From the NCBI GenBank assembly GCA_035623795.1, contig DASPST010000104.1:5366-69365 (forward strand): a DNA stretch of 64,000 nucleotides. Direction: 5' to 3'. A model generated the notes under the pieces. That model saw nothing but the letters and a program-made list of their open reading frames with translations. It was not told the DNA's origin and ran no database searches. A program made the position numbers and the translations under genes. Origin of the DNA: Terriglobales bacterium (GTDB lineage Bacteria > Acidobacteriota > Terriglobia > Terriglobales > Acidobacteriaceae). The first letter of the stretch is position 1, and each line of letters begins with the position of its first letter. This document shows positions 46,016 through 50,587 of the stretch, piece by piece.

Positions 46016-46546
46016 TTACTCTCCTGGAAGCACCGCCGCCGGGGCCCCGGCCTGAACTTCGGCCTGGTTGAAGACGAGGTTGGCTCCCATGTGAGCTGGC
46101 GCGGGCGCCAGCATCTGCTCCTTCCGGTAGATCAGGTTGCTGGCGTTGAAGGATGCCAGTTCGAACCCATGACCGTGCGTGATCGCATCGGTGGGGCACG
46201 CTTCCACGCAGTAGCCGCAGAAGATGCACCGGTTGTAGTCGATGTTATAAACCTTAGCGTAGCGCTCGGCGCCGCTCACGCGCTCGGTTTCGGTGTTCTC
46301 CGCGGCTTCGATGTAGATGCAATTCGCGGGGCAGGCGGCGGCGCACAAAAAGCAGGCAACGCACTTCTCCAGGCCGTTCTCGTCCCGCTGGAGCACGTGC
46401 ATGCCCCGAAACCGTTCCTGGAAGCGCGCGCCCTTTAAGGGACCCGGTCCGTCCGGATAGTTCTCGACCTGCGTCGGTTGAAACATCTCCTTAAAGGTGA
46501 TGCTCATTCCCTTGGCGATCGCCGCGACATTTTTAAACACTTGCAT
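46016..46546 (-). CDS. nuoI: NADH-quinone oxidoreductase subunit I-like 2x[4Fe-4S] protein, stand-alone copy 2
   Basis: AKGMSITFKEMF....ENYPD NuoI-type N-terminus. CVACFLCAAACP and CIFCGYCVEACP motifs. Same strand as metH and directly upstream of it. Confidence 0.75.
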   Translation of the reverse strand: MQVFKNVAAIAKGMSITFKEMFQPTQVENYPDGPGPLKGARFQERFRGMHVLQRDENGLEKCVACFLCAAACPANCIYIEAAENTETERVSGAERYAKVYNIDYNRCIFCGYCVEACPTDAITHGHGFELASFNASNLIYRKEQMLAPAPAHMGANLVFNQAEVQAGAPAAVLPGE

Positions 46547-46681
46547 GAATCATCAGTATACCCAAAGCCGGCAAGGGACGCGAAGCCGTCACGGTCGGGC
46601 GGGATTACCATGTGGACGGCGACGCATCCTTCGCTTACGATGGCACATCTAAGCGCCTGTCTCTGGTCGCCTTCTGCCAAT

Positions 46682-48592
46682 ATGGCCCCAATTCTGGATA
46701 CCATCAATTCTCCTGCCGATGTTAAGCAGCTTTCCCTCTCCCAGCTGGACCAACTGGCCGCGGAAATCCGCGAAGAGCTGATTACCGTTCTGGCCAAGAC
46801 CGGGGGCCATCTCGGACCCAACCTCGGCGTCGTGGAACTGACCATCGCCCTGCATTACGTGTTCAACACGCCCGCAGACCATTTCGTCTTTGACGTGAGC
46901 CACCAAGCCTATGTTCACAAGTTGCTCACCGGACGGCGCAAGCAGTTCCATACGATTCGAACCCCAGGCGGGTTGAACGGTTTCATGCTGCGCACCGAGA
47001 GTCCGCATGATTGCTATGGAGCCGGTCATGCGGGAACCGCGTTGTCGGCGGCCCTGGGCATGGCCGTCGCCCGGGACCGGGCAGGAGGGAAGGAACATGT
47101 CGTGGCGCTGGCGGGAGACGCGGCCTTCACCTGCGGCATAACGTACGAAGCCCTGAACAACATTGCGCAGCAGACGCGCCGGCTGATCGTCGTCCTCAAC
47201 GATAACGAGTGGTCGATCGACAAGAATGTGGGGGCGATCGCCAGTTACCTCAACCGGATCGTGACCAACCCGCGCTTCGACTACCTGCATGAGCGGGCGG
47301 GTCGGTTCGTGGAGACGATGGGCGGCAAGATCGCGTTGCGCATGGCGCGCAAGGCGGAGGAAGCCGCCAAGAGCATGTTCTGGCCTAGCGTGATCTTCGA
47401 GGAACTGGGCCTGAAATACTACGGTCCGCTGGACGGACACGACATCACGACCCTGATCAAGACCTTCGAGTTTCTCAAGACGCAGCGGCGCCCCGTGTTG
47501 CTGCATGTACTCACTCAAAAAGGCAAGGGCTTCCAGCCCGCCCTAAAGAAACAGAAGAAATTTCATGGCTTGGGGCCTTACGATCCCGAGACGGGCGAAA
47601 CCAAGCCGCTCGGCCGACGCACCTACTCCGAGGTCTTCGCCGACACCCTGGTGAAGCTGGCGGACCTGAACCCGAAGGTTGTGGCCATCACGGCCGCCAT
47701 GCCCAACGGCACGGCTCTCGACCGCTTCCATCCTCATCATCCAGACCGATATTTTGACGTGGGAATCGCCGAGGAACATGCCGTCATCTTTGCCGCCGGG
47801 ATGGCGACCCAGGGGCTCAAACCCTATTGCGCCATCTATTCGACGTTCCTGCAGCGCTCGTTGGACCCTATCCTCCATGACGTGTGCCTGCAGAATCTGC
47901 CGGTGGTGTTCGCCATGGACCGCGGCGGCTTATCCGGCGACGACGGGCCCACTCATCATGGCTTGTTTGACATCAGTTACTTGCGCGGTATCCCCAATAT
48001 CGTGCACATGGTTCCTAAAGATGAGGACGAACTGGCAGACATGCTGTTCACTGCCATGCAGCACAACGGTCCGGTCGCAGTGCGCTACCCGCGGGGAGTC
48101 GGCCCGGGGACGCCGGTGAAGGACGTTCCGCGTGCCATACCGATTGGCAAGGGCGAACTTCTCCAACACGGGGAGAACGACCGCGTGGCCATCTTTGCGC
48201 TGGGAGCGCTGGTGCCGCTGGGGCTCGAGGTGGCCAGGAAGCTGGAAGGGGAAGGTGTCACCAGCGCCGTCGTCAATGCCCGCTTTTGCAAGCCGGTGGA
48301 TATCGAGCTGCTTGAGTTCTACGCGCGCAATGTGGAGGTCATTCTGACCCTGGAGGATCACGTGCTGAAGGGCGGTTTCGGCAGCGCAGTGCTGGAAGAA
48401 TTGAGCAATCTGGGGTTGAGTACCCCGGTGGCGCGCATCGGCTGGCCGGACCGGTTTATCGAGCATGGCAAGCCCGAGGCTCTTCGCGAGAAGTACGGGA
48501 TCACAGCGGCGGCGGCACTGGAGAAGCTACGGCCGTACCTGATTCAGCCGCGAGCCTCGCCGCGACTCACCGTCAGACCTCCGCCGGTTTGA
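46682..48592 (+). CDS. dxs: 1-deoxy-D-xylulose-5-phosphate synthase
   Basis: ILDTINSPADVKQLS, GGHLGPNLGVVELT, DVSHQAYVHKLLTGR and GDAAFTCG signatures. ATG 46682 chosen. Confidence 0.95.
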   Translation: MAPILDTINSPADVKQLSLSQLDQLAAEIREELITVLAKTGGHLGPNLGVVELTIALHYVFNTPADHFVFDVSHQAYVHKLLTGRRKQFHTIRTPGGLNGFMLRTESPHDCYGAGHAGTALSAALGMAVARDRAGGKEHVVALAGDAAFTCGITYEALNNIAQQTRRLIVVLNDNEWSIDKNVGAIASYLNRIVTNPRFDYLHERAGRFVETMGGKIALRMARKAEEAAKSMFWPSVIFEELGLKYYGPLDGHDITTLIKTFEFLKTQRRPVLLHVLTQKGKGFQPALKKQKKFHGLGPYDPETGETKPLGRRTYSEVFADTLVKLADLNPKVVAITAAMPNGTALDRFHPHHPDRYFDVGIAEEHAVIFAAGMATQGLKPYCAIYSTFLQRSLDPILHDVCLQNLPVVFAMDRGGLSGDDGPTHHGLFDISYLRGIPNIVHMVPKDEDELADMLFTAMQHNGPVAVRYPRGVGPGTPVKDVPRAIPIGKGELLQHGENDRVAIFALGALVPLGLEVARKLEGEGVTSAVVNARFCKPVDIELLEFYARNVEVILTLEDHVLKGGFGSAVLEELSNLGLSTPVARIGWPDRFIEHGKPEALREKYGITAAAALEKLRPYLIQPRASPRLTVRPPPV

Positions 48593-48602
48593 GTTTAGGC
48601 CG

Positions 48603-49763
48603 TTAGAAAGGGAGGATGTTCTCCTCCGCAGCATCCATCGGGTGGGACATGCGTTGCTTGCGCAGTTCGCCGAGGAAGAGTTCGGCGGGCAAGGAGGCCT
48701 TGTCGTAGAACAATTCGAGGAGCGGATCATCGATTTCGTGGCCGTCGGGCGCCGCCTTTGAGGGCACATCCGCTTCCGTCTCCAGCCCCTCCGGCTCAAC
48801 CATGAGTTCGGGGATGGCGCCGTCTCCATCGCGGAGAGCGTGAATGAATTTCTCCACCTGATCACGCTGCTCGTCAGTCGTTTGCCGGAACTCGACGCCC
48901 ATTCCAACTTCAGGGTGCATGATGCGCACTACCCCTTCGACGCGAAGTTCGAGCCCGGCGGCGCGCATGCAAATCAGAATCCGGGTGCGCGCCGGAAAGG
49001 GAGAAGACACCTCCAAATAGCATCCCCCCAGACTGAGGTCGGTCAGCTTGCAGCGCACGGGTGGGTCATCCTTCTCATTTTCAGGAGACTGGCTGTTCAA
49101 CCACTGCCGCAGCTGATACGAGATCTCGACCGGAGGACCCACAAAACGGATCCCGATCTGCCCTCCCGGGTTCTGCCAGGCGGCCTCGCCGGCCAGCTCG
49201 AGTTCTCGGGTTGAGCCCGGCAGAGCAAACTTCACTTGCCAGGGGCCGCGGTGCTTCGCGCCATGACGCTTGGGATGTTGCACCGCGATGCCACCCTCGC
49301 TCAAGTCGTTGCTGACCACCTTCTCTTTGAGACCGCTGCTCTGGTTGATCAGGTGAACCGGGACCTGAACTGGAACCCGGGTGTTGCGCCGGCGTTCGCG
49401 CTTCATGAGGGCACGAGCCGCCCGGAAGGCAGCCTTCGCCCGTTCCGGGGAGACCGGTTTGTAGAGGACAAAGTGGGCCCCCATGTCGAAAGCAGAACGC
49501 AAACCCGTGTGCCCGTCCATGATGGCTACGGCAATAGCGCGTTTGTTGCATGGAGCGGTGCGAGCGGTCTTGAGCGCCGTGCTTGCGGTTTTCAGGTCGG
49601 TGCAATCGACGATGACGGCTTCAAAACGCAGCCGGGTAAGCTTGCGGATTGCGCTTTCGGGTTCGCTGCAGTGGTCGATGCCGATCTCCAACTCGCTGAG
49701 GACACGCCGCAAAAGGCGGACAATCTTCTCATCGGAGCACAGCACGAGTGACTTCAGACTCAT
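48603..49763 (-). CDS. response-regulator receiver (REC) plus tandem PilZ domain protein (paralog of 532-1668)
   Basis: VLCSDE, AVIVDCTD and VLYKPV mark the REC domain. RRRNTR ... DLSEGG mark PilZ-1, and KLTDLSLGGCYLE marks PilZ-2. It shares the C-terminal tail IDDPLLELF....LP.E.FLGELRKQR. Confidence 0.8.
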   Translation of the reverse strand: MSLKSLVLCSDEKIVRLLRRVLSELEIGIDHCSEPESAIRKLTRLRFEAVIVDCTDLKTASTALKTARTAPCNKRAIAVAIMDGHTGLRSAFDMGAHFVLYKPVSPERAKAAFRAARALMKRERRRNTRVPVQVPVHLINQSSGLKEKVVSNDLSEGGIAVQHPKRHGAKHRGPWQVKFALPGSTRELELAGEAAWQNPGGQIGIRFVGPPVEISYQLRQWLNSQSPENEKDDPPVRCKLTDLSLGGCYLEVSSPFPARTRILICMRAAGLELRVEGVVRIMHPEVGMGVEFRQTTDEQRDQVEKFIHALRDGDGAIPELMVEPEGLETEADVPSKAAPDGHEIDDPLLELFYDKASLPAELFLGELRKQRMSHPMDAAEENILPF

Positions 49764-49804
49764 AACGCAGGCTTTCAGGCTCGCGGTTGCAGCCGGCCGG
49801 CTGC

Positions 49805-49969
49805 TCAGCCCCGGCCAGGCGGAATGTCTTTCTCTTCTTCCTCATCCGCATCGAGCAGGTGGGCGACGTTGCGCAACTGCTCGGCAGCTGTCTGGAGGGC
49901 TTCGATCTGCTTTCCCAACTCGGCCTGCTGGGCTTGTTTCCTACGCAACACCTCGTGAATATCTCTCAA
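49805..49969 (-). CDS. small coiled-coil protein with acidic tail (small-partner family, copy 2; 54 aa, TTG start)
   Basis: GGGAGG lies 5 nt before the TTG. Product: (M)RDIHEVLRRKQAQQAELGKQIEALQTAAEQLRNVAHLLDADEEEEKDIPPGRG. By hand alignment, 32 of the first 47 residues are identical to 226-498. It is below the ORF-track cutoff. Confidence 0.55.
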   Translation of the reverse strand: MRDIHEVLRRKQAQQAELGKQIEALQTAAEQLRNVAHLLDADEEEEKDIPPGRG

Positions 49970-49987
49970 GAGCGCCTCCCGAAGGCC

Positions 49988-50016
49988 ACTGTACGGTGGG
50001 GTGCCAAGGGAGTCAA
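49988..50016 (-). promoter_or_regulatory. candidate sigma70-type promoter of the 49969-48603 module
   Basis: On the minus strand: TTGACT, 17 nt, TACAGT. Confidence 0.4.
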
Positions 50017-50174
50017 TGAAGGTCCCTTGCCCTCAGGTTACGGCCGTAATAGGCTGAAGGCCAGGAGTTCGTGAAGGCGCCGTCGAGTTCACAATGACGG
50101 TGATGTATTTCGTCTAACCTATTGCTGGGTAATGACTTAGTTTTTTGACGCCGGCGTTTGAGGTAAGAATCGCA

Positions 50175-50203
50175 TTGACTTTAAGGCAGAAATAGCCTAG
50201 TAT
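50175..50203 (+). promoter_or_regulatory. near-consensus sigma70-type promoter
   Basis: TTGACT (50175-50180), 17 nt, TAGTAT (50198-50203), in an AT-richer spacer. It would give a leader of about 150 nt before the ATG at 50360. Confidence 0.5.
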
Positions 50204-50359: not shown

Positions 50360-50587
50360 ATGGCAAAGCGACGCGGCAACCCGAATTGGGGTAAGCCGGA
50401 GCCCATCGGGCCGATTACCCCCACCGTCACCGAGTTCGAACAGGTGGTGCGTGAATACAAACTCTCCCCCGACCAATATTTGCGGTCGACGCGTTTGCGG
50501 GAGTGGGCACGGCGAAACAAGAACTCGAAGTACATCCCCGAACCGCTGTTGGAAGCCTGGGGCTTCGAGATCGAGTCCACTCTGTAA
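50360..50587 (+). CDS. small basic hypothetical protein (75 aa)
   Basis: MAKRRGNPNWGKPEPIGP... It has its own promoter-like boxes and is followed by a clean terminator. No family recognised. Confidence 0.55.
   Translation: MAKRRGNPNWGKPEPIGPITPTVTEFEQVVREYKLSPDQYLRSTRLREWARRNKNSKYIPEPLLEAWGFEIESTL

Follow-up and report, generated by a model that had tools for sequence, protein, structure and literature searches.

The subject of this study is a pair of adjacent genes on the minus strand of a 64,000-nucleotide (nt) stretch of DNA from a Terriglobales bacterium of the phylum Acidobacteriota (GenBank assembly GCA_035623795.1, contig DASPST010000104.1, positions 5,366 to 69,365), which is referred to as the window throughout. 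The larger gene (48603-49763, with its ATG at 49763) encodes a protein of 386 amino acids (aa) with two Pfam matches to PilZ and a sub-threshold match to Response_reg, and is termed here the REC-PilZ-PilZ gene, after its receiver-like (REC) domain and its two PilZ domains. The smaller gene (49805-49969) lies directly upstream and encodes 54 aa, from a TTG start codon at 49969-49967 to a TGA stop codon at 49807-49805. A Shine-Dalgarno (SD) sequence, GGGAGG, can be read directly at 49980-49975, 5 nt (CGCTC) ahead of the TTG, and no in-frame ATG, GTG or TTG is found between the upstream in-frame TGA and this start codon. The small gene is preceded by a promoter candidate of the sigma-70 type (49988-50016) and by an operator-like palindrome (50037-50050), and is separated from the REC-PilZ-PilZ gene by an intercistronic spacer of 41 nt (49764-49804).

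An initial annotation of this DNA, made from the sequence alone, had recognized the small open reading frame (ORF) at these positions, with GGGAGG 5 nt before a TTG that is the first canonical start after an in-frame TGA and with its end 41 nt before the ATG of the larger gene, and all of these assignments were confirmed on the sequence. It had also described the small ORF as invisible, the only ORF of the track at this place being an antisense one (49787-50074). This 95-aa ORF on the plus strand, opposite the small ORF, is indeed present in the ORF listing, and the 54-aa frame was missed by the track because it is listed only once the length threshold drops below the default of 60 aa. The description thus holds for the 60-aa track, but not for gene callers elsewhere, which have called hundreds of homologues as hypothetical proteins.

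A paralogous module, referred to as copy 1, is located on the plus strand at 146-1668 and includes a palindrome (146-159), a -35 box (180-185), a -10 box (203-208), a small gene of 90 aa (226-498) with an ATG start and the C-terminal residues APRWP, and a REC-PilZ-PilZ gene (532-1668, ATG at 532). The pair introduced above is accordingly copy 2. That the module is duplicated, with its other copy at 226-1668, had been proposed in the initial annotation, and protein sequence, gene order, spacing and promoter boxes do agree between the copies.

Coding status and linkage of the small gene

The small ORF bears a clear signature of selection on its amino acid sequence. In a comparison of 20 orthologues over codons 2-40, variable sites were found at 13, 5 and 39 of the 39 first, second and third codon positions, respectively, and the pooled ratio of nonsynonymous to synonymous polymorphism (pN/pS) was 0.056, with synonymous sites saturated. 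An SD motif, (A/G)GGAG(G/A), lies 5-8 nt ahead of the start codon in 19 of 19 genome orthologues. With the 54-aa product as query, 227 homologous clusters were retrieved, mostly of 51-54 aa and from metagenome bins of Acidobacteriia/Terriglobales; several homologues of the copy-2 type carry the NCBI or JGI (Joint Genome Institute) name 'hypothetical protein', and the longer database entries of this type are mis-called upstream starts which contain the same internal Val/Leu start. The antisense frames opposite the small ORF have no comparable coding support and are open merely through composition. The pN/pS ratio, the codon-position pattern, the homologues and the conserved SD sequence and start position together indicate that the TTG-started ORF is a genuine, strongly conserved protein-coding gene, as the initial annotation had maintained on the strength of its conservation; purifying selection, synteny and the conserved promoter, SD sequence and spacing bear out that view.

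The AlphaFold2 model of the small protein consists of a single amphipathic helix (residues 3-45) and a disordered acidic tail with GRG at its end; the predicted local distance difference test score (pLDDT) is above 90 up to about residue 38. Leucines 18, 25, 32 and 39 are placed at heptad spacing in this helix. In addition to the heptad positions, D3, E6, R9, K11, Q12, Q21, E23, Q26 and R33 are invariant, and because these residues cover every face of the helix, the pattern suggests that it is enclosed by partners or buried in a complex rather than forming a simple homodimer. No significant match to the small protein was found in Pfam (best E value 0.006, Prefoldin, below cut-off), NCBIfam (best E value 0.079) or the sequences of the PDB (best E value 0.19). 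The names attached by JGI to small homologues (YlxW, H-NS, MlaD and RQC) reflect coiled-coil noise, and no support for any of them was found.

The linkage between the small ORF and the REC-PilZ-PilZ gene was followed through 20 genome loci fetched by means of the large protein and 80 further loci from a metagenome scan, in which the large protein is 54-78% identical to that of the window; the 450 nt upstream in these 100 loci were searched with a hidden Markov model of the small family. The small ORF is located directly upstream of the large gene in 19 of the 20 genome loci, and among all 100 copy-2-type loci it is present 24-160 nt upstream of the REC-PilZ gene in 56, missing from 37 with at least 300 nt of upstream sequence, and impossible to judge in seven with too short an upstream region. 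The start codon in the 56 loci is GTG in 53, TTG in one and ATG in at least one (L062), the window itself using TTG. In every examined locus of the copy-1 type, recognizable by a C-terminal RWP, the arrangement is the same, a PilZ protein of about 375 aa beginning 28-36 nt after each of the distant members P0225, P0332 and P0307. Furthermore, three long database entries continue from the small ORF into the REC-PilZ gene, as a result of read-through or frameshift calls, and thus provide independent evidence for the same gene order. The proposal of the initial annotation that the small ORF is a conserved partner gene of REC-PilZ-PilZ is therefore upheld by synteny in 56 of the 100 copy-2-type loci and in every RWP-type locus examined. 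More generally, genes of fewer than 60 aa with a non-ATG start can be recovered reliably through synteny combined with codon-position statistics.

The two copies in the window are related in both of their genes. The small proteins share 65% identity over 49 aa (E value 1e-19) and the large proteins 39% identity over 379 aa (E value 8e-85), the small proteins thus being the better conserved between paralogues. Comparison of the two loci indicates that the small and the large gene were duplicated as a unit, and that the duplication is ancient and not recent, because the large paralogues are only 39% identical.

Promoter, shared palindrome and transcript

The promoter candidate of copy 2, found by a consensus scan, comprises a -35 box TTGACT (50016-50011) and a -10 box TACAGT (49993-49988) separated by 17 nt. 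Copy 1 has the boxes TTGACC and TACATT at the same distance (180-208), and TTGAC(G/T), 17 nt and TA(A/C/G)A(G/T)T are found ahead of the small ORF in 19 of 19 genome orthologues. About 19 nt separate the end of the -10 box from the start codon, so that the leader, counted from the presumed transcription start, should measure about 12 nt.

The initial annotation had suggested that the upstream regions of both copies be compared for a shared operator, and this comparison revealed a palindrome, TTAC-N4-GTAA, which is shared by the two copies, recurs in related loci and constitutes a new observation beyond that annotation. In copy 2 it reads ATTAC-GGCC-GTAAC on the minus strand (50037-50050, core TTACN4GTAA at 50038-50049), and in both copies the motif (G)TTAC-N4-GTAA(C/T) ends exactly 20 nt before the -35 box, the copy-1 site being located at 146-159 with its core at 147-158. 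These are the only two exact TTACN4GTAA sites in the window, in which 0.16 would be expected. Of the 88 related loci in which the upstream sequence is long enough, 83 contain the exact motif, with invariant half-sites and free N4; it begins at -76 to -83 from the start of the small ORF where this ORF is present, and is also retained in the clade without the small ORF and in distant copy-1-type loci. Across 514 kilobases of fetched loci, 86 of 93 sites fall in the upstream zone, four lie ahead of the large gene and three elsewhere, against about 3.9 expected in total. The centre of the palindrome is at about -62 from the transcription start deduced from the promoter boxes, a position typical of activator sites, and since the older paralogous operon at 146-1668 has the same layout, one common regulator probably controls both operons. 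In a basal copy-2 lineage (L070, L073, L079 and L082), where the spacers measure 111-160 nt, a second exact TTACN4GTAA lies 53 nt before the REC-PilZ ATG, suggesting that the large gene has an operator or promoter of its own there.

Among the alternatives to a partnership of the two proteins, the one that fares best, although unlikely, is that the small helix is itself the regulator, alone or together with the PilZ protein. It would then form a minimal leucine-zipper dimer on TTAC-N4-GTAA which autoregulates both operons, and REC-PilZ-PilZ would be its signal input or a co-regulated neighbour. The exact heptad spacing of the four leucines and a mildly basic N-terminal RRKQ are in keeping with such a role, as are weak matches of both copies to Pfam bZIP_1 (E values 0.021 and 0.13), the near confinement of the palindrome to the upstream regions of these operons, which fits a dedicated regulator or an autoregulator, and the existence of DNA-binding dual-PilZ proteins, of which MrkH and PlzA are among the fold matches of the large protein. 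However, the bZIP score of 15.3 bits is well short of the cut-off (27.6), and the segment ahead of the zipper has only about 17 residues, three of them acidic (D3, E6 and E17), and lacks the signature of a bZIP basic region. Membership of the small protein in the bZIP family was rejected on these grounds, the heptad leucines notwithstanding. Moreover, the palindrome is kept where the small gene has been lost, so that another protein must bind there, and no DNA-binding domain is detectable in either protein with Pfam or NCBIfam.

The two genes are likely co-transcribed as a two-gene operon, to judge from the arrangement of their expression signals: promoter and strong SD sequence are conserved upstream of the small ORF only, the large gene having only a weak and distant GGAG, and no terminator-like site was found by a scan of the 41-nt spacer. 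A GC hairpin in this spacer (GCAGCCGGCCGGCTGC, 49804-49789) has no U-tract and is not conserved, and the spacer measures mostly 39-46 nt in the genome orthologues. In one subclade (L015, L025, L033 and L035) the spacer is enlarged to 92-115 nt and contains a long inverted repeat (GTCGTCAGTCGCCAG...CTGGCG..CCGACTGACGAC) followed by five T, which may be an attenuator or terminator between the cistrons.

A first cistron with a minimal leader and a strong SD sequence, ahead of a large gene with only its weak GGAG, could also be a regulatory upstream ORF (uORF), whose translation rather than its product tunes REC-PilZ expression via coupling, mRNA protection or stalling at a Pro-stop context. A start codon other than ATG has been conserved (GTG in 53 of the 56 loci), the ancestral form of the protein ends in an invariant PRWP-stop resembling Pro-stop stalling peptides, of which TnaC is an example, and the ORF could be deleted in evolution, with a 5' untranslated region of 60-110 nt in its place. 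Nevertheless, this explanation is improbable, given that selection on amino acids spans the whole 40-residue N-terminal helix, far from the stop codon, that the helix is 65% identical between paralogues whose partners share 39%, that copy 2 has no PRWP, and that the two ORFs do not overlap but stand 24-160 nt apart, no alternative RNA structure being conserved. Classification as a leader peptide or regulatory uORF was rejected accordingly: the low pN/pS ratio extends over codons 2-40, folding of the transcript is no better than that of shuffled sequences (z = 0.13), and a scan of the window against Rfam yielded only a tRNA elsewhere and nothing at this locus.

Diversification and loss of the small gene

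The small proteins fall into two types. With the copy-1 protein as query, 3589 homologous clusters with full-length coverage were obtained, and their alignment shows a helix (residues 1-40), an acidic stretch, an Ala/Ser-rich linker and an invariant C-terminal (A/L/S)(P/L)RWP. The last of these stands directly before the stop codon, in the window at 475-498 and family-wide in copy-1-type homologues down to about 35% identity; such a terminus could serve as a short linear motif for docking, or else make translation pause at a Pro-stop context. Copy-2-type proteins have neither linker nor RWP and end in a short acidic tail, often GRG. The initial annotation had noted this divergence of the tails, and its description of the copy-2 tail as short and acidic applies, while that of the copy-1 tail as Ser/Gly-rich omitted the invariant terminus. 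The copy-1 type (about 88 aa) is commoner and probably the ancestral form, with copy 2 as a trimmed, derived paralogue. Fixed differences between the paralogues occur at positions 14-15, 19, 27, 31, 34 and 37 (KY versus E/Q-Q at 14-15, A/G at 19 and P/H at 37), and resemble insulation between paired paralogues.

The family as a whole is compact, a profile search of 1.84 billion representatives having returned only 131 matches, nearly all of 50-130 aa. Its members are all labelled Acidobacteriota/Terriglobales, except for one bin labelled Dormibacteraeota. The weakest profile matches that were looked up and have no RWP (P0340 and P0361) have unrelated neighbours and no palindrome, and were not counted as members; the contig of P0348 is too short to show the downstream gene and was left out of this judgement.

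The absence of the small ORF from part of the copy-2-type loci was placed on a neighbour-joining tree rooted on copy 1. In this tree the losses comprise one large monophyletic clade (34 loci) and the isolated loci L016 and L087. Since the basal copy-2 lineages retain the small ORF, this distribution implies that the copy-2 lineage originally possessed it and that at least three deletions have occurred since. In the initial annotation, relatives lacking an upstream small ORF were named as an observation that would speak against the gene; such relatives exist, namely the clade and the two isolated loci, but 56 of the 100 loci keep the ORF, and its loss points to a dispensable rather than a noncoding ORF at this locus. 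Loci of the loss clade have an untranslated leader of 60-110 nt after the promoter, and the copy-1 small protein possibly serves the receptor there. A hairpin-like segment (GTGTTTCGTTTCCGC...GCGGGAGAAGCAC) recurs about 110-40 nt upstream of the REC-PilZ ATG in L045, L053, L054, L058, L067, L083 and their relatives, and may represent a structured leader replacing the small ORF.

These repeated losses, at least three in number, together with the missing linker and PRWP motif and the weak start codons of the copy-2 small genes, raise the question of whether copy 2 is a redundant, decaying paralogue heading for loss, the real function being supplied by the copy-1 protein. We consider this unlikely, because the retained copies are strongly constrained (pN/pS 0.056) across lineages with saturated synonymous sites, and because copy 2 keeps fixed, paralogue-specific residues of its own. 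The same fixed differences would find a place in a still more speculative scheme, to which we give little credence, in which the small helix and REC-PilZ-PilZ form a transcription switch responsive to cyclic dimeric guanosine monophosphate (c-di-GMP) and phosphorylation; the zipper would dimerize the complex on TTAC-N4-GTAA, each operon would autoregulate, and the helix differences would insulate the pairs from each other. If true, it would add a new mode of output to the PilZ receptors and provide a bacterial DNA-binding subunit with a minimal zipper. Finally, a chance ORF or antisense shadow without a product, as might be supposed of a short, TTG-started frame with a longer ORF on the opposite strand, is effectively refuted by the codon-position pattern (13/5/39), the hundreds of homologues and the conserved SD sequence and start position, and retains virtually no probability.

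The REC-PilZ-PilZ protein, its proposed partner and known systems

The larger protein was assigned to the PilZ family on the basis of both sequence and fold. Pfam PilZ (PF07238) matches two stretches (E value 1.4e-19; 70.7 bits against a cut-off of 22.5), and the AlphaFold2 model (mean pLDDT 78.9) contains two barrels, each followed by a helix, which Foldseek aligns with the PilZ domains of Alg44, BcsA and MapZ at template modelling (TM) scores of 0.66-0.76, in agreement with a PilZ fold. In PilZ1 (aa 123-225, nt 49397-49089), the RxxxR motif (R122-E-R-R-R126) and the DxSxxG motif (D153-L-S-E-G-G158) vary little or not at all among 26 sequences, that of copy 1 included. PilZ2 (aa 236-312, nt 49058-48828) keeps D242-L-S-L-G-G247. 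The putative c-di-GMP function thus relies on canonical binding motifs that are intact in PilZ1 only, from which ligand binding is predicted. The receiver-like domain (aa 3-120, nt 49757-49404) is modelled with the five-strand, five-helix layout of CheY at a pLDDT of about 90 and resembles CheY4 and other receivers (Foldseek TM scores of 0.84-0.85); D11 (with E12), D53 and K102-P103 are invariant, and its last helix runs straight into the RxxxR of PilZ1 (R122-R126).

At the C-terminus, two conserved helices (DDPLLELF...ELRKQR) and the tail EENILPF are evident from the alignment (aa 345-386, nt 48731-48606), the helices being modelled with low confidence. Most loci with the small ORF have the tail, EE(T/N)ILP(V/F), on their copy-2 large protein (48603-48626 in the window), and copy 1 is without it; the tail may serve for docking. 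In the main loss clade the protein ends in GLAAAxxSA instead; yet about ten loci with the small ORF also lack the tail, and L016 has lost the ORF and kept a tail. A correlated loss of tail and small ORF was therefore rejected, the pattern being confounded by phylogeny.

The explanation that we favour, as a probable one, is that the small ORF is the genuine first cistron of the REC-PilZ-PilZ operon and encodes a one-helix protein partner of the c-di-GMP receptor, with which we infer that it interacts. One sigma-70-type promoter with a very short leader would drive the expression of the helix protein of about 53 aa and of REC-PilZ-PilZ. The helix would act as a protein and not as a leader peptide, most likely by binding the co-expressed REC-PilZ-PilZ as a regulatory or adaptor subunit, and the binding of c-di-GMP, perhaps along with phosphorylation of the receiver, would change what the pair does and hence its putative cellular output. 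A single regulator, acting through the palindrome, would govern both paralogous operons. Coding status, selection, synteny, duplication as a unit, the conservation of promoter and operator and the predicted folds are the observations from which this proposal starts.

Several observations weigh against this partnership. On at least three occasions the copy-2 lineage has lost the small gene but retained an intact REC-PilZ-PilZ gene, which indicates that the receptor can work without a partner of the copy-2 type encoded in cis. The near-invariance of the helix leaves no covariation signal to a surface of the large protein. With respect to the receptor itself, no RxxxR is found in PilZ2 at the expected distance, the score of the receiver falls short of the PF00072 cut-off in both copies (17.3 bits in copy 2 and 25.8 bits in copy 1, against 30.2), and the conserved Thr/Ser switch residue is missing from the end of its fourth beta-strand (I81-M82-D83). 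Apart from the question of partnership, the case is limited in that public annotations already call the gene, and in that a large sister clade can dispense with the copy studied here.

The neighbouring genes have housekeeping functions (metH, dxs, a DUF4126 gene and ribBA), and no cyclase, phosphodiesterase or kinase genes were found in the examined flanks of either copy. The dxs gene (46478-48592, plus strand) converges on the REC-PilZ-PilZ stop codon (48603-48605, minus strand), with 10 nt between the stops (48593-48602) and no terminator-like site. In three loci (L104-L106, 1-2596), genes for a hybrid histidine kinase (REC-PAS-HATPase), a REC-HDOD-HD protein and a REC-HD-GYP (HD_5) protein stand immediately upstream of a distant copy-1-type operon, and are candidates for the input and c-di-GMP-degrading parts of the same circuit.

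Divergent from the copy-2 operon lies a 75-aa ORF on the plus strand (50360-50587; MAKRRGNPNWGKPEPIGPITPTVTEFEQVV...), noted together with a promoter-like site at 50175-50203. Its product is an extraordinarily conserved small protein, 94.7-100% identical across 80 related loci, compared with only 54-78% identity for the REC-PilZ proteins encoded there. Its distance from the REC-PilZ start is 333-840 nt, with two exceptions among these loci (1720 and 1892 nt), and copy-1-type loci do not have it. Searches of Pfam and the PDB gave no match, the only similarity detected being a weak one to a MarA-like helix-turn-helix (E values of about 0.08-1.2).

PilZ proteins are the commonest c-di-GMP receptors, and their downstream partners are mostly unknown. 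Comparative genomics here provides a specific candidate for such a partner, a single-helix protein of about 50-90 aa which is better conserved than the receptor, co-duplicated with it and placed under the same promoter. Acidobacteriota are abundant in soil and their signaling has hardly been studied experimentally, so that the two-gene module and its operator offer a small, testable entry point. In the literature searched, no paper was found on this small-protein family or its pairing with a PilZ receptor, nor on 'REC-PilZ', and papers on PilZ in Acidobacteria were not relevant. Within these limits, the combination of a PilZ receptor operon, a small helical partner of putative function that is strictly linked to it, and a dedicated operator appears to be previously undescribed.

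The building blocks of the receptor are nonetheless familiar, REC-PilZ fusions and PilZ-PilZ tandems being known domain architectures (bioRxiv 10.1101/814665). At the level of domain layout, there is a likeness to PixA of Myxococcus xanthus, an orphan which also combines PilZ and a receiver in one polypeptide, without an adjacent kinase or a DNA-binding output domain, and is thought to act via protein-protein contacts, the same outline as for the protein described here. However, PixA has the order PilZ-REC with one PilZ domain, and pixA is monocistronic and has no small partner gene (PMC8316039), whereas the present protein has the order REC-PilZ-PilZ and an upstream small gene. With the tandem PilZ proteins (PilZ-PilZ of the Bll4394/Blr5568 type, xPilZ-PilZ of PlzA, and MrkH; bioRxiv 10.1101/814665) it shares two consecutive barrels, one canonical and one degenerate. 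PlzA (7mie) and MrkH (5kec/5kgo) are its best whole-chain fold matches, but the superposition is poor (TM scores of 0.2-0.3), the N-terminal barrel is canonical here and the C-terminal one lacks RxxxR, the reverse of the situation in PlzA and MrkH, and an N-terminal receiver and conserved C-terminal helices are added.

A PilZ domain of the c-di-GMP type is likewise shared with the flagellar brake YcgR, the name that JGI attaches to many homologues. This label is a domain-level transfer and not membership: Pfam detects no PilZN/YcgR_N, and NCBIfam FlgBrkeYgcR scores 13.6 bits on copy 1 against a cut-off of 400, copy 2 being unlisted. Finally, MapZ-CheR1 and PilZ-FimX-PilB resemble the proposed pair in the use of PilZ as a ligand-controlled adaptor, and the MapZ chains 5xly and 5y4r are among the top fold matches. 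In those systems, however, the partners are enzymes or ATPases encoded elsewhere, whereas the proposed partner in the present operon is a helix of about 53 aa encoded immediately upstream of its receptor.

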